Source: a virus
Lineage: Duplodnaviria > Heunggongvirae > Uroviricota > Caudoviricetes
DNA length: 36,057 nt
IMG/VR virus record: IMGVR_UViG_2541047846_000002
Location: 1-36,057 of that record
Reading direction: 5' to 3' (one strand)
Below the pieces are notes generated by a model, which worked only from the letters and a program-made list of their open reading frames with translations, did not search any database and had not been told where the DNA came from. Shown here one piece after another: positions 1-10,891 of this stretch. Every line of letters begins with the position of its first letter. Positions within the stretch are counted from its first letter, which is position 1. The position numbers and the translations under genes are program-made.

Positions 1-1053
1 TTACGGGGTAATGCCAACCGCTGCCGCCACTTTGTCGCCACTTGGCAGCGTTGCCAGAGGATTGAAACGGAGCGCCGTTTCCAGATGATCCGGTGCCAGA
101 TGTGCGTAACGCATAGTCATTTTTATATCGTGGTGTCCGAGAATTTTTTGTAAGGCCAGAATGTTTCCACCCGACATCATGAAGTGCGCCGCAAACGTAT
201 GGCGCAGAACGTGTGTGAGTTGACCGCGAGGGAGCACGATAGACGTTTTTTCCATTACGGATAAAAATTGAAAATAGCAGTCTGTGAAGAAATTGAACCC
301 ATCAAGCGCCATGATCTCTTCGTAAAGCTCTTTACTGATAGGGATGCTTCTGTTTTTCTTCCCCTTCGTTCTGACAAAGGTAATTCGGTATTTGGTCACC
401 TGTGAGCGGGTAAGATTTACGGCTTCACGCCAGCGTGCGCCTGTGCTTAAGCATATCTTAACTATCAGTGCCAGAATTGGGTCCTGACGTTTGCAATCAG
501 CCAGCAATTCAACAATCTGCTCATGGGTAAGCCATGCCATCTCTTTTTCTGCGATGGTGAATTTTCGCATGTTCTCCAGTGGGTTCGGATACGACCATTC
601 GCCCAGACGGGATAGTTCGCTAAAAACACTACTTAGATAGCTTTGCTCCAGGTTAATGGTGACCGGGCTTGCTCCTTTCTTCCATTTCTCGCTGAAGTAG
701 ATCTCTCCTGTCAGGCGTTTATCTCGATAGTGGGCAAACATTTTAGAGGTGAGATCTGTTGCAAGGGGATTGCCCAGAGCGTCAACCATCAACAGCAATT
801 TGTCATAGACATGCTGTCCAGCGGTTAGAGATTTACCATGTAGTTTGAACCATAGCTCAACCACGTCTTTCAGTGTTCGACGATCCACTGATTCACCAAG
901 CCAGGGCTTTGCTTCGGTTTCTTCCATCGTGTGGCGCTCAAAAGCCAGAGCTTCGCCTTTGGTGGCGAATTGTTTACGCACACGACGCCCACTTCGTCCG
1001 GCGGGGTAACATTCGCAAAGCCATTTCCCTGTGGTGAGTTTTCGTACTGCCAT
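1..1053 (-). CDS. int: Phage tyrosine integrase (P2/186-type)
   Basis: 350-aa ORF; C-terminal catalytic region with H-x-x-R and conserved Tyr (LRHTFAAHF...HHDIKMTMRYAHL); position at prophage end next to repressor as in P2/186. Confidence 0.9.
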   Translation of the reverse strand: MAVRKLTTGKWLCECYPAGRSGRRVRKQFATKGEALAFERHTMEETEAKPWLGESVDRRTLKDVVELWFKLHGKSLTAGQHVYDKLLLMVDALGNPLATDLTSKMFAHYRDKRLTGEIYFSEKWKKGASPVTINLEQSYLSSVFSELSRLGEWSYPNPLENMRKFTIAEKEMAWLTHEQIVELLADCKRQDPILALIVKICLSTGARWREAVNLTRSQVTKYRITFVRTKGKKNRSIPISKELYEEIMALDGFNFFTDCYFQFLSVMEKTSIVLPRGQLTHVLRHTFAAHFMMSGGNILALQKILGHHDIKMTMRYAHLAPDHLETALRFNPLATLPSGDKVAAAVGITP

Positions 1054-1078
1054 AAAAAAGCCCTCATGTCAGAGGGCT
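1054..1078 (-). terminator. Hairpin (AGCCCTC-N6-GAGGGCT) followed by T-run on minus strand, ending at the int start codon; may terminate the upstream cargo operon and/or occlude the int RBS
   Basis: Inverted repeat 1059-1065/1072-1078 with A-run 1054-1058 on plus strand (T-run on minus strand). Confidence 0.4.
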
Positions 1079-1133
1079 AAATTTAACTGTATGTTTGACC
1101 AGTGGTCAATGTATGGTTTGTGAAATCCATACA

Positions 1134-1664
1134 TTACCTTAATTTATCAAGCTCTCGTTTATTTCTTTTATCATGTATATCATTAAGAAATAATATATTA
1201 CTAGCAATGATACTAAATAACGCTATTATTTGTAGATATACTAATAACGCGGTGATAAAAAATCCAAACTTGCAGAACACGTGCTTATGCAAGGAAATGA
1301 AATCCAGATTTGAAAATATAGGTTTCGTTAAATTTATTATAACAATAGAAAATATTACAATAGCTGAAATTATAATGGTTTTCACTATCAGCGTAATTCG
1401 CTCAATATCTTTTTCTGTTTCCTTATGATAGTTTATACTAGTTATTGTTGATGGCTTTACAATTGAACTTACAGCTGCAGGGTAAATATATGCAAGCCAA
1501 ATACCTGCAATAGTGAAGATCATTGCAGAAATGTTTTGCAAGGTAGATAAAATATCTTTTATATCTGCATACGTATATTTGTCTCCGAACAAATAAGCAA
1601 TAGCTATAATTGTTAGGAGAAAACATATGTGCAAAATTTTAGGTTTTATAATCATACTATGCAC
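1134..1664 (-). CDS. Small integral membrane protein, about four predicted transmembrane helices (cargo gene 2)
   Basis: 176-aa ORF with four long hydrophobic segments; start overlaps stop of upstream gene by 8 nt; visibly AT-rich. Confidence 0.6.
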   Translation of the reverse strand: MHSMIIKPKILHICFLLTIIAIAYLFGDKYTYADIKDILSTLQNISAMIFTIAGIWLAYIYPAAVSSIVKPSTITSINYHKETEKDIERITLIVKTIIISAIVIFSIVIINLTKPIFSNLDFISLHKHVFCKFGFFITALLVYLQIIALFSIIASNILFLNDIHDKRNKRELDKLR

Positions 1665-2859
1665 CTATTTTATGAATCTGCACTGCTGTATCATTATCAG
1701 CTTCTGGTTGTTCTATTATATCTTCATTTTTAAAACAATTCACCAAATCATTTCTATGAGCTTTTACTACACTCATTAAATATGAAGAAGAGTAATGTTT
1801 GTTTCTGTTAGAAAGGTCAACGTGAATTTCATGGCGATAAACATATTCATCTAACCAAGTAGTTGAACCATTTTTCCCATTTATTTTGAATCCGATGCGT
1901 GCGTGATCATTCCCTACATTCTCATTGTTGTTTTCTGTATCTTCTGAAATAGGATTGTGGTTTTCTATATATTCATCGATGAGTTTAGTGAACTCTTCAG
2001 GCGTAGGCGTTCCTTCGACTAATAATTCAACGCGATGTTTTTTTGATAAAATAGGAGAGCTTCTTGAGAAAACATCTCCAACTGCATCAAATAACTTCTG
2101 CCATTTTTCCCGTGTATCAGGTATGTTTGTTTCTATTACGTCATGGTAAACAATGTGAGTGATTTTTTTACACAGTTCTTCTATGTTTGCTCCACTCGTG
2201 ATCATCCTTGTTTGTTTAGTCTGTACTTTAAAAACTAAACTTTCATCATCACCTTGAGAAAAAAGAACACGTTTGTAATGAACGTCTTCAGGTGAGTCAT
2301 TACGAGGACGAGTCATATCTATGACTTTTTTATTAGGATGCTCCATCCTAAAGTCAACGTATGCTTTAATATAATGACAGAAAAGATCTGTATCCGTATT
2401 AGAACTTGGGAATCGTATGGATGCAATTTTGTTATATTCTGGAATTACCCAATAGTAGCAAGGTACGCCCCAGATATATTTACCGCCACCTTGAGTATCA
2501 GAGGCGGATACAACATTATCTGAAGTGCCGTCAATCTTACTTTCAGCATCTATACCTTGAATATTTCCAGAGTTATCACCAAGCGTTTTCCAGATAACAA
2601 ATAGATAATCTCCTGTCGTACTGTCATATGAAATATTTTTACAGTATGCTTTTGTTCTTCTATTATTATCCTTTCCCCATGGAACAGATTGTTCAACTGT
2701 TCTTGAACAGATCCAGCTATGTAAGTTACACAGAACATGGGATAAGTTCTTTTCGACTAATTCCGGCGATTTGCCTTGTCGTATTTTATAAAGGCCAAAC
2801 ATTTCTAAATCAAAAAATGTTATAATGCCGCGTTCAGTTTTAAAGTTGGTTTTACTCAT
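1657..2859 (-). CDS. Hypothetical soluble protein, 400 aa (cargo gene 1), co-directional with and immediately downstream of cI
   Basis: Long ORF in AT-rich DNA; AG-rich RBS-like sequence upstream of ATG at 2859; no motif I recognise. Confidence 0.6.
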   Translation of the reverse strand: MSKTNFKTERGIITFFDLEMFGLYKIRQGKSPELVEKNLSHVLCNLHSWICSRTVEQSVPWGKDNNRRTKAYCKNISYDSTTGDYLFVIWKTLGDNSGNIQGIDAESKIDGTSDNVVSASDTQGGGKYIWGVPCYYWVIPEYNKIASIRFPSSNTDTDLFCHYIKAYVDFRMEHPNKKVIDMTRPRNDSPEDVHYKRVLFSQGDDESLVFKVQTKQTRMITSGANIEELCKKITHIVYHDVIETNIPDTREKWQKLFDAVGDVFSRSSPILSKKHRVELLVEGTPTPEEFTKLIDEYIENHNPISEDTENNNENVGNDHARIGFKINGKNGSTTWLDEYVYRHEIHVDLSNRNKHYSSSYLMSVVKAHRNDLVNCFKNEDIIEQPEADNDTAVQIHKIGA

Positions 2860-2939: not shown

Positions 2940-3821
2940 TTAATTCGAAATGATTGTGCTTCTTATGCATGCAACTACCTCGATATCAGAAAATGCACAT
3001 TCAAAGTAAGTTTCTTTACTTCTGATATTTATCATACCTTTAGGTAGCCTAGTAATTTGTCTGACGGAATAGGTTCCATCAATATTAATTAACCAGTATC
3101 CATCTAATACATCAGAAAATTTCTGATCACAGATGTATGCCACTAAACCATCCTGAACGACAATTGGTGCTGAAAGATTAGCGGGTAAAAATGACGAATC
3201 GAAAATATATGAGCCACTCTCAACCATTTTGCCTGCATTGAGATGAAATTTAGGCAGTTCTTTTACCGATGTTGTGAGAGCATTGTGCTCGCTGCCTTGT
3301 CCAGTGGCTAGCCATAAAAGAGAATTTCCTGTTTCCAACGAACATTTTATGATCCAATCAGCCGGGAATGTGTCTCGCAAATATCTATTTGCCATAGTGC
3401 TTTTAGATACATTCAGATGGTCGGCAAGTTCTTGTCTTGTTTTAAAGCCATACGCTTTCATTAGCCTGTCTATTGCATCACGTCCGCCTGAGTCCAAATT
3501 CAGATCGTTCCCAATTGGGGACTTCAGGGTGGTGGCTTGGGAAACGTGCTGAACCTTTGATGCAGTTGCCTTTGACATGACCGGAGCCTCAGTACTCTGA
3601 GGGAATGGTACGCCTTTTCCGAATGAGAGCCACTCGATAGATGCACCCGTTTCAATTGCACACTGAATTACCCAGTCAGCAGGAAATACGTCACGCATCC
3701 AGCGCGTGCCCATAGTGCTTGCAGATACGTTGAACTGTTCGCACAGAGCTTGCCTTGTCTTGAATCCATACGCTTCAAGCATGCGCGTTATGACTGCTTG
3801 TCCTCCGTTTTTGAAATTCAT
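2940..3821 (-). CDS. cI: CI-type immunity repressor (186 CI family) with tandemly duplicated N-terminal HTH domain
   Basis: Two consecutive ~60-aa repeats (MLEAYGFKTRQALCEQFNVSASTMGTRWMRDVFPADWVIQCAIETGASIEWL / LMKAYGFKTRQELADHLNVSKSTMANRYLRDTFPADWIIKCSLETGNSLLWL) followed by a C-terminal domain; divergent from apl/cox. Confidence 0.8.
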   Translation of the reverse strand: MNFKNGGQAVITRMLEAYGFKTRQALCEQFNVSASTMGTRWMRDVFPADWVIQCAIETGASIEWLSFGKGVPFPQSTEAPVMSKATASKVQHVSQATTLKSPIGNDLNLDSGGRDAIDRLMKAYGFKTRQELADHLNVSKSTMANRYLRDTFPADWIIKCSLETGNSLLWLATGQGSEHNALTTSVKELPKFHLNAGKMVESGSYIFDSSFLPANLSAPIVVQDGLVAYICDQKFSDVLDGYWLINIDGTYSVRQITRLPKGMINIRSKETYFECAFSDIEVVACIRSTIISN

Positions 3822-5751: not shown

Positions 5752-6605
5752 GCACCATCCTGAAATGGGCGGGAAATAAAACCGCCATTATGTCCGAACT
5801 GAAAAAACATCTTCCTGCTGGCCCGCGACTGGTTGAACCTTTCGCGGGTTCCTGTGCTGTGATGATGGAGACGGATTACCCCAGCTATCTTGTTGCGGAT
5901 ATTAATCCTGATTTAATCAACCTCTATAAAAAGGTTGCTGCTGATTGCGAGGCGTTTATATCTCGTGCCAGAGCTTTATTTGAGGAAGCAAACAGGGAGG
6001 TGGCTTATTACAACATAAGGCAGGAGTTTAATTACTCCACTGAAATTACTGATTTCATGAAAGCGGTATATTTCCTGTATCTCAATCGTCACGGTTACCG
6101 TGGTTTATGTCGCTATAACAAGAGCGGGCATTTCAACATTCCCTACGGTAATTATAAAAATCCGTATTTCCCTGAAAAAGAACTTCGCACATTTGCAGAA
6201 AAAGCCCAGCGAGCAACGTTTATCTGCGCCAGATTTGATGAAACGCTGGCGATGTTGAAGGCGGGAGATGTGGTGTATTGCGATCCGCCGTATGACGGTA
6301 CGTTTTCCGGCTATCACACTGATGGTTTCACTGAAGATGACCAGTATCACCTGGCATCCGTTCTTGAACATCGGTCATCAGAAGGACATCCGATCATTGT
6401 TTCTAACAGTGACACATCCCTGATCCGTTCGCTGTATCGCAATTTTACTCACCACTATATCAAGGTAAAACGCAGCATCGGTGTGGCAGCTGGCGAGGGT
6501 AAATCAGCAACAGAAATCATTGCTGTTTCCGGGCCGCGCTGCTGGATGGGATTTGATTATTCGCGTGGCGTGGATAGTTCTGCCGTGTACGGAGTACGTG
6601 CATGA
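5748..6605 (+). CDS. dam: DNA adenine (N6) methyltransferase, Dam-like
   Basis: Motifs FAGSCAV (AdoMet binding) and DPPY (catalytic); start ATG 5748 overlaps upstream stop (ATGA) and GGAGG RBS; ORF-track start at 5688 is upstream of the likely true start. Confidence 0.85.
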
Positions 6606-9016
6606 GTCATGCCGATATAAACAACTGCTGCGGCTTTAACGAGGCTGCCGCAGCGTTCTCATGGAACAGCCCGAAAAAGGCCATTAACCCTTATCTGGAC
6701 CCGGCGGAAGTTGCGCCGGTTTCTACGCTTTCAAACCTGATCACTCTGTACGCTGCCGATAACGAGCAGGAACAGTTGCGCCGCGAGGCACTGAGTGATC
6801 AGGTCTGGGAGCGTTATTTCTTTAATGAATCCCGTGATCCTGTCCAGCGCGAAACGGAGCAGGATAAGCTCATTAGCCGGGCAAAGCTGGCGCATGAGCA
6901 GCAGCGTTTTAATCCGGATATGGTCATTCTGGCGGACGTCAACGCCCAGCCTTCCCATATCAGCAAGCCGCTGATACAACGTATTGAATACTTCAGCAGC
7001 CTGGACAGGCCAAAGGCTTATTCCCGCTATTTACGTGAGACGATTAAGCCATGTCTGGAACGACTGGAGCATGTACGCGACAGTCAGCTATCTGCATCTT
7101 TTCGCTTTATGGCAAGCCAAGAAGGGCTGGACGGCCTGCTGATCCTGCCTGAAATGAGTCAGGATCAGGTGAAACGCCTGTCCACCCTGGTAGCTGCGCA
7201 TATGAGTATGTGCCTTGATGCAGCTTGTGGTGATTTGTATGCCACCGATGACGTTAAGCCAGAAGAAATCCGCAAGACATGGGAAAAGGTGGCAGCGGAA
7301 ACCCTGCGTCTGGATGTCATCCCGCCTGCGTTTGAGCAACTCCGCCGGAAAAGAAACCGCCGTAAACCCGTGCCCTATGAACTCATTCCTGGTTCGCTGG
7401 CGCGTATGTTGTGCGCCGACTGGTGGTATCGGAAATTATGGAAGATGCGTTGCGAATGGCGGGAAGAGCAGTTGCGTGCTGTCTGCCTTGTCAGCAAAAA
7501 AGCATCTCCCTATGTCAGCTATGAAGCCGTGATGCATAAACGTGAGCAGCGCCGTAAGTCGCTGGAGTTTTTCCGTTCTCATGAACTAGTGAACGAAGAC
7601 GGCGACACGCTGGACATGGAGGATGTGGTAAACGCCAGCAGCAGCAACCCTGCGCATCGCCGCAATGAGATGATGGCCTGTGTTAAAGGTCTGGAGCTTA
7701 TCGCGGAAATGCGTGGCGACTGCGCCGTTTTCTACACCATCACCTGTCCGTCACGTTTCCATTCCACGCTAAATAACGGCAGGCCCAACCCGACCTGGAC
7801 AAATGCGACGGTAAGACAAAGCAGTGATTATCTGGTCGGCATGTTTGCTGCATTTCGTAAGGCGATGCACAAAGCCGGATTGCGCTGGTATGGCGTGCGA
7901 GTGGCTGAGCCGCATCATGACGGCACAGTTCACTGGCACCTGTTGTGTTTTATGCGCAAAAAAGACCGCCGCGCCATTACTGCTTTGTTGCGTAAGTTTG
8001 CCATTCGTGAAGACCGCGAGGAGCTGGGTAATAACACGGGGCCACGCTTTAAGTCTGAGCTGATAAACCCGCGCAAAGGAACGCCGACAAGCTACATCGC
8101 GAAATATATCAGCAAGAACATTGACGGGCGTGGTCTGGCTGGCGAGATCAGCAAGGAAACGGGTAAATCTCTGCGTGATAACGCTGAATACGTGAATGCC
8201 TGGGCGTCTTTGCATCGTGTTCAGCAATTCCGCTTCTTTGGTATTCCGGGACGTCAGGCTTACCGTGAACTTCGCTTGCTGGCTGGTCAGGCGGCAAGGC
8301 AACAGGGTGACAAAAAAGCAGGTGCGCCGGTACTGGATAACCCGCGTCTTGATGCCATTCTGGCTGCTGCTGATGCAGGTTGTTTTGCCACCTACATCAT
8401 GAAGCAGGGCGGCGTACTGGTTCCCCGTAAATATCACCTCATCAGAACCGCTTATGAAATCAACGAAGAGCCGACCGCCTATGGCGATCACGGTATTCGT
8501 ATTTATGGCATCTGGTCACCCATTGCAGAGGGCAAGATCTGCACTCATGCAGTGAAGTGGAAAATGGTTCGTAAAGCCGTTGACGTTCAGGAGGCGGCAG
8601 CCGACCAGGGCGCTTGCGCCCCTTGGACTCGTGGCAATAACTGTCCCCTTGCTGAAAATTTGAACCAACAAGGGAAAGACAAATCAGCTGATGGGGATAC
8701 CAGAACGGATATCACCCGCATGGATGACAAGGAGTTGCACGATTACCTGCACAGTATGAGCAAAAAAGAGCGCCGGGAACTGGCAGCAAAATTACGCATG
8801 GTTAAACCGAAACGGCGTAAAGACTACAAACAGCGAATTACAGAGTATCAGCGTCAGCAGCTCGTCTATGAACTGAAGTCCAGAGGATTTGATGGCAGCG
8901 AGAAAGAGGTCAATTTGCTCCTTCGCGGCGGCAGTATTCCGTCAGGAGCAGGCCTGCGTATCTTCTATCGGCACCAGCGTTTGCAGGAAGATGATAAGTG
9001 GCGAAACCTGTATTAA
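6602..9016 (+). CDS. A: Rolling-circle replication initiator, P2 gpA family
   Basis: 804-aa ORF; contains YIAKYISK-type active-site tyrosine motif; position after early genes; ATGA overlap with dam. Confidence 0.85.
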
Positions 9017-9108
9017 TTACGCGGGTTAACAATTCGTGCTCTTAATAATACCAGTCATATCAGGCTGATGAGCGTAAAAAAACGTTTTACATCAGTAAGA
9101 TTATTATA

Positions 9109-9128
9109 TACTGTAAATATAAACAGTG
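9109..9128 (+). promoter_or_regulatory. LexA (SOS) box TACTGTAAATATAAACAGTG
   Basis: CTGT-N8-ACAG at 9111-9126 with flanking TA/TG, about 40 bp upstream of the 9169 start; matches consensus TACTGTATATATATACAGTA at most positions. Confidence 0.6.
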
Positions 9129-9168
9129 GTTATGTATACAGTATTGCTTTGGTGTCATAGGAGGAAAG

Positions 9169-9357
9169 ATGCAGGACTATTTTTTGGAGTCTTTGAAGCT
9201 CCAGCGCATTGATTTTTTTCTTAAGCTTGTAGCGGCTAGTGAGTGTAGTGATGAAGAGAAGGGGCTGGCCCTGCAGTGGGTTTCTGAACTGACAGATGAA
9301 CTCATGGCAAAAATCAGAACCCACGAATACAACCGCTCAATGGATGTCATCAGCTGA
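9169..9357 (+). CDS. Small SOS-controlled protein, possible Tum-like antirepressor N-terminal module
   Basis: 62-aa ORF with strong RBS (AGGAGG) directly downstream of the LexA box; position equals tum in 186. Confidence 0.5.
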   Translation: MQDYFLESLKLQRIDFFLKLVAASECSDEEKGLALQWVSELTDELMAKIRTHEYNRSMDVIS

Positions 9358-9367
9358 GGTGACTTTT

Positions 9368-9601
9368 ATGCGCATTGAAATAATGATCGATAAAGAGCAG
9401 AAGATTAGCCAGTCTACCCTGGACGCCCTTGAATCCGAGCTTTACCGCAATCTGCGCCCCCTATATCCAAAAACGGTAATTCGCATCCGCAAAGGTAGCT
9501 CTAACGGTGTGGAACTGACCGGACTGCAACTGGACGAAGAAAGGAAGCAAGTGATGAAAATTATGCAGAAAGTGTGGGAAGACGACAGCTGGCTGCATTA
9601 A
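9368..9601 (+). CDS. DinI-family protein
   Basis: 77 aa, MRIEIMIDKEQ...ESELYRNL...KVWEDDSWL resembles E. coli DinI (MRIEVTIAK...ETWESADDW); GAGGTG RBS; ORF-track start at 9296 is upstream. Confidence 0.75.
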   Translation: MRIEIMIDKEQKISQSTLDALESELYRNLRPLYPKTVIRIRKGSSNGVELTGLQLDEERKQVMKIMQKVWEDDSWLH

Positions 9602-9736
9602 GAAACGTTGCTGGCGTCTGAACTTGCTTCTGGCGTCAGCAAGGTTGAACTACGAGCCCTTGCGAGGCGTTAGCTCTGTAGTGCATGTCTATGTCGCATG
9701 AGATCGCATGATCGTTTGAGGATCGTTTTTGCTAAG

Positions 9737-9762
9737 GCCCGCCAGAACTGGCGGGCTTTTGC
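9737..9762 (+). terminator. Rho-independent terminator (GCCCGCCAG-AA-CTGGCGGGC-TTTT)
   Basis: Perfect 9-bp stem followed by T-run downstream of the DinI-like gene. Confidence 0.55.
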
Positions 9763-9805
9763 GTAGATCATGCAGGTGCATGAAAACCACTACATAAAGC
9801 GGGCA

Positions 9806-9824
9806 GGCGTGGCGGGGATACGAG
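9806..9824. other. Candidate cos (cohesive end) site
   Basis: GGCGTGGCGGGGATACGAG resembles the recalled P2/186 19-nt cohesive end (GGCGAGGCGGGGAAAGCAC for P2); lies at the expected map position between early/tum region and portal gene. Confidence 0.35.
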
Positions 9825-9976
9825 CGCGCGCTAAGTCATATAAGAGTTATATATTGATTTGATTGCTGGACATGCATACAGTATCGCTCTATCATCTAAT
9901 AAATCTTAGAGTATTTGGCAATGTTTGGATAAAATGGAACCTAACTTATTCATAATCCGCTAAACAGGGATGTCAG

Positions 9977-10891
9977 ATGCCATACCAATTGGTAGAGCTT
10001 AGCCCCGTAGCTAACGATCTTGAACAGTTAGGAACCAAAGAGAAGTTTTGGTTCTATTTCTCCGATGACACTGTAAATTTGCAGTTGTTTAAGTACTCTA
10101 GGCCAGGTACTGGCGAGCATTGGTCTGAAAAGTGTGCTGCTGAGTTATGTCATTTGCTTAACATTCCACATGCTAGCTATGATTTGGCGCGATACAATGG
10201 TCGATTCGGTGTGGTGACTCAGAATATCATTCCATCTGGTTTCCGGATGGTAATGGGAAATGAAGTGCTTCACAGTTCGACATTCGATTATCCTGGGCCT
10301 TTACAAGCCGGGGAAAAGCCGGTAAGGGTCAGAGAACACACTGTCACAAGGGTATTGGGTTGTTTGGATAGGGAATCTATCAAGCCTCCTCCGAGTGTAT
10401 ATGATCTAACCGGGCTAAATGCAGCAGATGTATTTTGTGGATATTTGATGCTCGATGCACTTGTGAGTAATCAAGATCGCCATCATGAAAATTGGGCGAT
10501 CATGCTTAACAATGAAACTGGTGAGCAGTTTTTGTGTCCAACATACGATCATGCCGCTAGTTTAGGAAGGGAGATGTTAGATGATGAGCGTAACGAACGG
10601 CTTAATACTAAAGATAAAAATCGACAAATCCCATGTTTTGTAAGAAAAGCTCGCTCTGAGCTATTCAAAGCAAAAACTGATAAAAAGCCCTTGCTGACCG
10701 TTGAAGCATTTCAACATGCAGTTGAAGGGAGAGTTGCCGCTCGCGACCATTGGTTAGGTAAGTTGAGCGTTTTAACAGAAGATTCCATTACAGATGTGTT
10801 TAACCAAGTGCCTTCATCGTGTATATCCGACAGTGCACGTAGATTTGCAACGTTAATGGTAATGGAAAATCGCAGAAGGTTACTAGAATGA
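9977..10891 (+). CDS. HipA/HipT-like (PI3/4-kinase-fold) Ser/Thr kinase core domain protein
   Basis: 304 aa; P-loop-like GTKEKF (aa 19-24) and catalytic loop SNQDRHHEN (N-x-D-x-H-x-x-N, aa 165-172) separated by ~145 aa as in HipA; lacks the HipA N-terminal subdomain; stop overlaps downstream start (ATGA). Confidence 0.6.
   Translation: MPYQLVELSPVANDLEQLGTKEKFWFYFSDDTVNLQLFKYSRPGTGEHWSEKCAAELCHLLNIPHASYDLARYNGRFGVVTQNIIPSGFRMVMGNEVLHSSTFDYPGPLQAGEKPVRVREHTVTRVLGCLDRESIKPPPSVYDLTGLNAADVFCGYLMLDALVSNQDRHHENWAIMLNNETGEQFLCPTYDHAASLGREMLDDERNERLNTKDKNRQIPCFVRKARSELFKAKTDKKPLLTVEAFQHAVEGRVAARDHWLGKLSVLTEDSITDVFNQVPSSCISDSARRFATLMVMENRRRLLE

Follow-up and report, generated by a model that had tools for sequence, protein, structure and literature searches.

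A probable SOS induction operon of the 'split tum' type in a Fels-2/PSP3-like prophage of the P2 group

A LexA-like site, a small open reading frame and a DinI-like gene follow one another in a 186/Fels-2-like prophage of the P2 group (Peduoviridae), and this arrangement raises two questions: whether the locus is the SOS-controlled induction module of the prophage, and whether its two reading frames are genuine genes or the halves of a damaged tum. In phage 186, LexA represses the promoter p95 and the product of tum reversibly inactivates the CI repressor (PMC7708051). The prophages 186, PSP3, Fels-2 and SopEphi are UV-inducible because of tum (PMC2771037). We analysed the locus within a window of 36,057 nt, i.e. 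the whole stretch of DNA under study, whose host is most likely E. coli. A Tum-type, LexA-controlled induction module had been proposed from the letters alone, and this proposal is supported by the position of the locus, by the homologies of both ORFs and by the 186-type CI of the prophage. We consider it very probable that we are dealing with the SOS operon of a P2-like prophage of the Fels-2/PSP3 type, in its 'split tum' form. In 186 the two halves constitute a single polypeptide; here the first ends in a stop codon and the second begins 10 nt further on in the +1 frame, and since the halves are separated, not fused as in 186, the locus corresponds to the PSP3/Fels-2 variant.

The overall organization of the prophage is in line with this assignment (Table 1). 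After CI come a Cox/Apl-like gene, cII and, further on, the replication gene A. The tum locus lies directly after gene A and before variable cargo and the portal gene, in the same order as in 186, PSP3 and Fels-2. The best DNA matches are E. coli prophages, with 99.2% identity over 2.7 kb, as in the lysogen SCU-106, and some version of the region is found in 1281 of 5426 complete E. coli genomes (about a quarter). The split form of the locus is found in 67 phage records, which come from Klebsiella, Salmonella, Escherichia and Yersinia.

Table 1. Coordinates of the features discussed, as positions in the window.
Feature	Position	Strand	Remarks
int	1-1053	-	left end
Two-gene cargo	1134-2859		between int and cI
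186-type CI repressor, 293 aa, predicted target	2940-3821	-	two tandem HTH domains and a CI C-terminal domain
Replication gene A (gpA)	6602-9016	same strand as the tum locus	Pfam Phage_GPA, 1.4e-127
Putative -35 hexamer TTTACA of the SOS promoter (counterpart of 186 p95)	9086-9091	+	from conservation and analogy with 186
LexA box 1, TACTGTAAATATAAACAGTG	9109-9128		overlaps the -10 region
LexA box 2, CAGTGGTTATGTATACAGTA	9124-9143		shares 5 nt with box 1
tumA Shine-Dalgarno AGGAGG	9159-9164	+	4 nt before ATG 9169; invariant in 8 relatives
tumA-like gene, 62 aa, predicted CI antirepressor	9169-9357	+	homologous to the N-terminal domain of 186 Tum
tumB, DinI-like gene, 77 aa	9368-9601	+	own ribosome site GAGGTG at 9356-9361, overlapping the tumA stop codon
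Predicted intrinsic terminator, GGCCCGCCAG-AACT-CTGGCGGGC then TTTT, closing the operon (counterpart of 186 t95a)	9734-9763	+	from fold energy

The near-consensus LexA box claimed upstream of the small ORF is present and unique. Box 1 is the sole occurrence of CTGT-N8-ACAG in the 36 kb window and the sole window site with at most three mismatches from the 20-nt consensus, for which shuffled sequences give an expectation of 0.01. Candidate sites were scored with a LexA PWM for which about 20 sites of E. coli served as the training set, the training sites themselves scoring 13-27 bits; as a null, the best score per shuffled 36 kb was taken (median 11.3 bits, 95th percentile 16.5 bits). With 24.1 bits, box 1 has the highest score in the window and lies in the upper range of real sites. 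It occupies the same position in all Fels-2-type relatives, and the LexA site of 186 is annotated at this position as well. Box 2 scores 15.9 bits here, which taken alone is slightly under the 95% null of the whole-window scan, and 11-19 bits (up to 19.4) in relatives, where the outer half-site, TACAG, does not vary. Boxes 1 and 2 combine into a single 36-nt near-palindrome (inverted repeat 9108-9125 / 9127-9144, 83% complementary). The CTG/CAG half-sites are unchanged across relatives with diverged flanks; indeed, in 8 diverged relatives both LexA boxes and the hexamer TTTACA are invariant, while the flanks vary.

The arrangement of the presumed promoter around these boxes was also compared. 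TTTACA lies 17 nt upstream of TACTGT, the hexamer annotated as -10 in 186 and overlapped here by box 1, or 15 nt upstream of TATACT; among the relatives, the 15-17 nt between TTTACA and the LexA box vary. A consensus promoter scan did not call the tumA promoter, no canonical sigma-70 site being found there. Thus, the reading of a tumA promoter from TTTACA is one that we infer from its conservation and from the analogy with 186. An Rfam scan of positions 8900-10100 gave no credible match.

The double operator has a close counterpart outside phages. A plasmid search with the Fels-2 version of the operator returned over 1100 matches, with small mobilizable plasmids contributing many, and the two matches examined lie directly upstream of the colicin E1 gene cea and of a cloacin gene. 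The window/Fels-2 operator aligns with these col operators nearly base for base over both boxes: the latter likewise consist of two LexA boxes offset by 15 nt, with CAGTG common to both, and the window operator shows the same overlap of two boxes with common bases. The run CAGTGGTTATATGTACAGTAT is identical in Fels-2 and the col promoters, whereas the window differs from it at two positions. The likeness concerns regulatory DNA only, since the controlled genes are unrelated and the -35 regions and leaders differ; both kinds of operator nevertheless guard a function lethal to the cell. Colicin-type double operators reportedly bind two LexA dimers and allow no detectable basal expression (PMC2994835). 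Since 186 and PSP3 carry a single LexA box in place of the double overlapping operator of the window, Fels-2-type phages could keep induction under stricter control than 186 and would probably respond at a later stage of SOS; this is also what a colicin-type operator predicts here, if confirmed.

The strong ribosome-binding site and the 62-aa ORF noted downstream of the box are both confirmed in the sequence. ORF62 is 98.4% identical to STM2728 of Fels-2 and 100% identical to its counterparts in many Klebsiella and E. coli phages; in databases it is labelled 'hypothetical' (RefSeq and most phage records) or, oddly, 'levan regulatory protein'. It has no model in Pfam, NCBIfam or PADLOC. In pairwise BLASTP, ORF62 matched neither 186 Tum nor PSP3 TumA, and its homology to Tum therefore rests on profile methods, which were positive. 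ORF62 matches the PHROG families phrog_698 (3.6e-38), phrog_8554 (2.4e-8) and phrog_1993 (2e-3), and these three are also matched, in register with ORF62, by the first 61 residues of 186 Tum. When the Fels-2-type family was compared by hhalign with the 186/ENT90/YenM/PSP3 TumA group, a probability of 94.3% was obtained (E 1.1e-7), with residues 7-47 of ORF62 placed on Tum residues 7-48. Furthermore, Yersinia enterocolitica phage proteins annotated as 'tum protein' match weakly at the same place (E=4 for ORF62, E=8e-3 for the N-terminal half of Tum). On this profile evidence, ORF62 and the N-terminal half of 186 Tum are remotely homologous.

A profile search of PDB sequences returned no relative of ORF62, and its AlphaFold2 model is a two-helix hairpin (pLDDT 90.9) for which Foldseek against the PDB found generic helical hairpins only (E>0.6), a result that says nothing on function. 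Selection on the gene is strong: with synonymous sites close to saturation (dS about 1), dN/dS is 0.03-0.12 in all but one comparison, the exception being the window against Fels-2, where a value of 0.24 comes from two differences only. The first gene of the operon most likely encodes an anti-repressor, and the 62-aa gene could usefully be renamed tumA-like antirepressor.

The separate DinI-family ORF is equally well borne out. The tumB product matches Pfam DinI (PF06183) over profile positions 1-63 of 63, with an E of 6.6e-23 and 81.3 bits against a cut-off of 24.2, and matches DinI of PDB entry 1ghh at 2.7e-6. With residues 71-145 of 186 Tum it shares 41% identity, in agreement with the DinI-like character ascribed to the C-terminal part of Tum. 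With respect to the split relatives, it is identical to the DinI-family protein of Fels-2 and 78% identical to TumB of PSP3. The longest DinI reading (9296-9601, 101 aa) is merely the longest open stretch; the start is most likely the ATG at 9368, since relatives annotate a 234-nt gene and this start has its own GAGGTG ribosome site. The tumB gene has dN/dS values of 0.02-0.10. Against NF007893, the NCBIfam equivalog of chromosomal DinI, tumB reaches 42.7 bits, far below the cut-off of 111, and, judged by this threshold, it is a phage-type member of the DinI family and not a host dinI. The predicted terminator, which is the inverted repeat I2, has a fold energy of -24.6 kcal/mol (z -4.25), and none of 200 shuffles folds as well; it lies inside the approximately 230 bp after dinI that are common to relatives, directly before the variable cargo. 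Non-polar deletions of dinI in Gifsy prophages had no significant effect on induction (PMC3121763), and the role of TumB is therefore uncertain.

Whether the two frames represent two genes or a frameshifted tum was decided by comparison with relatives. As claimed, the ORFs are in different frames (offset +1, 10 nt apart, tumA ending in TGA); the sequence-only reading had allowed both explanations, of which the two-gene arrangement stood and the frameshift did not, given the split in relatives, the varied frames and the purifying selection. If tum had been broken by a frameshift, a nonsense mutation or a sequencing error, the ORFs would be remnants and the prophage maybe not SOS-inducible; such a view could draw on the 146-aa polypeptide of 186, which spans both halves, and on the DinI frame, which is open for 25 codons upstream of its ATG, overlapping tumA. 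However, this upstream open stretch ranges from 1 to 25 codons among relatives, and the same split is found in Fels-2, SopEphi, PSP3 and Klebsiella and Yersinia phages; the phage records with the split and the E. coli genomes that match the region are counted above. Eight relatives have TGA, TAA or TAG as the stop codon, a gap of 3-13 nt and a frame offset of 0, 1 or 2, with both ORFs intact, so that the split survives deep divergence (dS about 1) with different stops, different spacers and all three offsets. Each ORF has its own ribosome site, and dN/dS is 0.02-0.12 in nearly all comparisons of the two. The TumA family comprises 85 clusters among 1.84 billion representative proteins, all but one of 22-133 aa, the longest under this limit being upstream over-calls; no DinI domain was found in any of the clusters, which, apart from that one, are short standalone proteins. 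The remaining representative, P0164 (1205 aa), was rejected as a family member, its match being a spurious one to a HEAT-repeat-like protein. In the literature, too, the split by a stop codon is the normal state of tum in Fels-2 and PSP3 (PMC3121763). The differing stop codons, gaps and frame offsets, together with dN/dS values mostly below 0.12 in both ORFs, argue for a genuine split; a broken tum, already refuted by these comparative data, retains a negligible probability. It is hardly more probable, and still very unlikely, that a fused TumA-TumB protein is made by programmed frameshifting or stop readthrough beside the separate products. The several nested Tum products of 186 would be a precedent, just 10 nt lie between the stop and the start that follows, and in the window, 813R9 and Fels-2 the DinI frame runs open through the tumA end. 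Yet the shift that would be needed differs between close relatives (none in PSP3 and MLG42, where only a stop intervenes, and one or two nt in others), there is no conserved slippery motif, and the open stretch upstream of the DinI start is just 1-4 codons in PSP3 and MLG42. Because the frame relationship varies in this way, a conserved recoding event is unlikely, and programmed recoding fusing TumA to TumB was rejected as a candidate.

With two separate genes as the preferred reading, it may still be asked whether both belong to the induction module. Conceivably, the DinI-like gene alone is functional, ORF62 being an unrelated small protein or leader peptide without a role in derepression, and induction occurs otherwise; the lack of Pfam, NCBIfam and PADLOC matches for ORF62, its uninformative database labels and the negative pairwise BLAST against Tum would agree with this. 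We regard it as improbable, though less so than the alternatives just discussed, in view of the in-register profile homology of ORF62 to the Tum N-terminal domain and the strong selection on it at the protein level. Moreover, tumA stands behind a LexA box without any dinI gene in ESSI2_ev040 and vB_YenM_06.16-2, and ENT90, also without dinI, has a LexA site at the annotated start of its tumA-like gene. Since these relatives keep a tumA-like gene and the box without dinI, tumA appears as the constant partner of the LexA box. Also, TumA types and CI HTH types change together, whereas TumB keeps 78% identity from one type to another. As for the box itself, the AT-richness of the region and the lack of a canonical sigma-70 site in the simple promoter scan might be expected if the site were a chance AT-rich palindrome and the operon were constitutive or read from the upstream gene A transcript. 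This is as implausible as a broken tum, considering the chance expectation and the top PWM score given above, the half-sites that stay invariant between diverged flanks, the annotated 186 site at the same position and the alignment with experimentally studied colicin operators (PMC2994835). A LexA-controlled operon of tumA and tumB thus remains by far the best account of the locus.

The presumed target of TumA was examined in the same way. CI had been considered non-autocleavable, and its domain content fits: Phage_CI_repr is found twice (4.6e-59) and Phage_CI_C once (1.2e-25), and no match to Peptidase_S24 was seen at E<=0.1. Since CI has 186-type domains and no S24 peptidase domain, it should not cleave itself. 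When the phages carrying this TumA type were compared, their CI proteins were found to be far more diverse than TumA. Where TumA is 84-100% identical to that of the window, the paired CI is only 40-73% identical overall to the window CI, and where TumA is 98-100% identical, the partner CI proteins are only 48-73% identical to each other. A specific antirepressor would not usually be near-identical beside such diverse CI proteins, unless it is assumed to bind the conserved HTH domain. Indeed, the second HTH domain of the window CI is 65-78% identical to the CI of every phage with this TumA type, against 38-46% outside the group, whereas the C-terminal domain shows 28-38% identity inside as well as outside the group, one case excepted. 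PSP3 illustrates the opposite behaviour of the two operon products, its TumB being conserved (see above) and its TumA only about 20% identical. The co-variation was assessed in 11 phages with common ancestry. As TumA identity tracks the HTH domain of CI and not the C-terminal domain, it is suggestive, though only suggestive, of a phage-specific TumA that contacts the CI HTH domain and a host-directed TumB. The conserved HTH domain of several CIs with different immunities may then be recognised by a single, nearly invariant TumA, in which case damage sensed by one prophage could induce co-resident relatives. If confirmed, the co-variation predicts a binding surface and possible cross-induction across immunities.

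By analogy with 186, PSP3 and Fels-2, from which we infer LexA binding, TumA-CI binding, the RecA effect of TumB and co-transcription, the locus would operate as follows. In the undamaged cell, LexA would sit on the double operator (9109-9143) over the -10 region and keep the two-gene transcript off. Upon DNA damage, RecA would become active, LexA would cleave itself and the operon would be transcribed, presumably as one transcript running through tumA and tumB to the terminator. TumA would then bind the uncleaved 186-type CI and take it off its operators, so that the lytic promoter would fire and the prophage would be induced. TumB could act on the host RecA filament and tune the SOS signal, and is not expected to be required for induction. 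The prophage should consequently be inducible by DNA damage, including quinolones or mitomycin C, and induction would go via the antirepressor, not via repressor cleavage.

Outside the tum operon, two further sites exceeded the range of the shuffles in the PWM scan. One of them (9864-9883, 19.7 bits) overlaps the -35 of TGGACA-17-TATCAT, a predicted promoter, and lies upstream of two genes, one HipA_C-like and one with a HIRAN domain, that match A and B of the PADLOC candidate system PDC-M03 (2e-122 and 3e-93). In loci of other species, a LexA box is found 79-94 nt upstream of PDC-M03A homologues in four out of nine, one of them with only 61% protein identity. The possibility that the PDC-M03 promoter is a diverged duplicate of the tumA promoter, raised by three short collinear repeats, was dropped since the two have little in common beyond the LexA box. 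The other site (1085-1104, 18.1 bits) takes up the spacer of TTGACC-17-TTAAAT, a promoter directly upstream of int; a hairpin comes next and reaches right up to the int ATG. The layout of box and hairpin recurs in 813R9, Klebsiella phage 4LV2017 and ESSI2_ev040, with stronger boxes and different hairpin sequences; in Fels-2 and 186, on the other hand, int abuts cI without such a LexA box. A literature search found no description of a LexA box upstream of int. The cargo genes between int and cI match PDC-M18 A and B, so that the prophage carries two candidate defence systems.

It is possible, although we give this slightly less than even weight, that a P2-like subgroup wires its own small LexA regulon, consisting of tumA-tumB, int and PDC-M03, and uses one TumA recognising several CIs. 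In such a regulon, a LexA-occluded promoter with a conserved leader hairpin would drive int, and the box at 9864-9883 would control the PDC-M03 cargo, i.e. a HipA-like kinase and a HIRAN protein. If confirmed, the boxes at int and PDC-M03 would place excision and a defence candidate under SOS control. Together with the double operator and the TumA/CI-HTH co-variation, the extra LexA boxes would constitute modest additions to a known module.

Comparison with known systems places the locus among several related arrangements. In the p95-tum unit of 186, too, a promoter located after gene A has its -10 covered by a LexA box, and the N-terminal antirepressor and C-terminal DinI-like domains of Tum are homologous to the two window ORFs. 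In addition, 186 has the same type of CI and likewise a terminator, a partial one, followed by cargo (orf97). The main difference is that in 186 both domains are fused in one protein with nested internal starts, whereas they are split in the window. According to Lemire et al. (2011), Tum resembles a fusion of an antirepressor with DinI (PMC3121763).

In PSP3, tumA and tumB show the same two-gene split behind one LexA box after gene A, and the record annotates tumA as "similar to 5' end 186 tum; UV induction of prophage" and tumB as DinI-like. Its CI (286 aa) has tandem HTH domains, as the window CI has, and is 32% identical to it. PSP3 differs from the window in the single LexA box, in a 3-nt gap and in having both genes in one frame, separated by an in-frame TAG. 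The upstream gene of PSP3 carries antirepressor activity, reported as a personal communication (PMC3121763); this is the only split TumA with reported activity, and it is the one that shares about 20% identity, below BLASTP detection, with ORF62.

The Gifsy-1/2/3 prophages present a more distant parallel: their dinI-gfoA/gftA loci combine a LexA-controlled small antirepressor with a DinI homologue, and their repressors are uncleaved (PMC3121763). The Gifsy antirepressors can act in trans on other prophages (PMC3121763). On the other hand, dinI comes first in these loci, and the phages are lambdoid, with another repressor family (PMC3121763).

The closest known system is Fels-2, described as 186-like, antirepressor-regulated and UV-inducible (PMC3121763, PMC2771037). 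Its STM2728 and STM2726.1 correspond to the two window genes, and the double LexA operator, the 10-nt gap, the frame offset and the position after gene A are as in the window. The Fels-2 CI differs, having 210 aa and a single HTH; it is 48% identical to the window CI overall, with 78% in the HTH domain and 31% in the C-terminal domain, and the downstream cargo differs as well. The mechanism being textbook for 186 and described for Fels-2/PSP3, its confirmation here would be annotation, not discovery: the module, as already described in Fels-2 and PSP3, is very common, real but ordinary.

Analysis of the region immediately 5' of int revealed a predicted promoter, TTGACC-17-TTAAAT, whose spacer is taken up by a LexA-like box, AACTGTATGTTTGACCAGTG (1085-1104). 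In a scan of the window with a weight matrix built from about 20 E. coli LexA sites, this box scored 18.1 bits. Downstream, a hairpin (AGCCCTC/GAGGGCT, -13.3 kcal/mol) followed by T6 adjoins the int ATG. The same arrangement of box and hairpin is observed in the related phages 813R9 and ESSI2_ev040, whose boxes score 23.2 and 22.9 bits, and in Klebsiella phage 4LV2017, though the hairpin sequences themselves are not alike. The int genes of the Fels-2/186 type lack it. This arrangement suggests that int expression is under SOS control in this subgroup of phages. A literature search turned up no account of it. The AT-rich cargo located between int and cI matches the PADLOC candidate defence system PDC-M18: one protein, of 400 aa, matches component A (2.1e-36) and the other, of 176 aa, component B (5.1e-24). 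In related phages, this position is occupied by other cargo, for instance a 'chromosome segregation ATPase' in 813R9.

The same scan detected a LexA-like box of 19.7 bits, TGCTGGACATGCATACAGTA (9864-9883), that overlaps the -35 element of a predicted promoter, TGGACA-17-TATCAT, upstream of two genes that match the PADLOC candidate defence system PDC-M03. Among nine PDC-M03A loci of other species, four (Pectobacterium, Buttiauxella and two MAGs) carry a LexA box 79-94 nt upstream of the gene, and none was found there in the Endozoicomonas-related, Shewanella, Microbulbifer and Providencia loci.

Features of the window and of related phage records
Feature	Record	Positions	Strand	Remark
int	window	1-1053		
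Upstream region of int	window	1054-1115	minus	
Two-gene cargo	window	1134-2859	minus	between int and cI
CI repressor gene	window	2940-3821	minus	293 aa
Box and predicted promoter	window	9864-9895		5' of the next two genes
HipA_C-like gene	window	9977-10891		matches PDC-M03 A, 2e-122
HIRAN-domain gene	window	10888-11628		matches PDC-M03 B, 3e-93
tumA-like gene	ESSI2_ev040	8953-9213		strong LexA box just upstream
tumA-like gene	vB_YenM_06.16-2	6950-7132		strong LexA box just upstream
tumA-like gene	ENT90	8959-9198		LexA site at annotated start
tumA copy	Escherichia phage 500465-1	4483-4671		

Some P2-like phages (ESSI2_ev040, vB_YenM_06.16-2 and ENT90) possess a gene similar to tumA, the predicted antirepressor gene, without any DinI-like gene. 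There are therefore three layouts in all: fused in 186, split in PSP3, Fels-2 and the window, and tumA alone. At the split junction of the window, a terminator scan also returned, as a pattern match only, a weak hairpin (GTCATC-AGCTGA-GGTGAC, 9346-9363); it covers the stop codon of tumA together with the DinI-like gene's ribosome site and could act as a translational coupler of the two genes. The tumA product of Escherichia phage 500465-1 differs from that of the window over a short stretch in its interior, reading EERGWLCSGVSEL where the window has EEKGLALQWVSEL; this looks like a compensating frameshift pair or a sequencing error. Gene A of the same record contains IS elements.

The CI repressor of the window, the predicted target of TumA, carries two tandem Phage_CI_repr HTH domains (residues ~1-70 and 109-178), 56% identical to one another, followed by the CI C-terminal domain. 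The same domain architecture is found in the CI of PSP3 (286 aa), at 32% identity. Fels-2, 186 and 813R9 each encode a CI with a single HTH domain.
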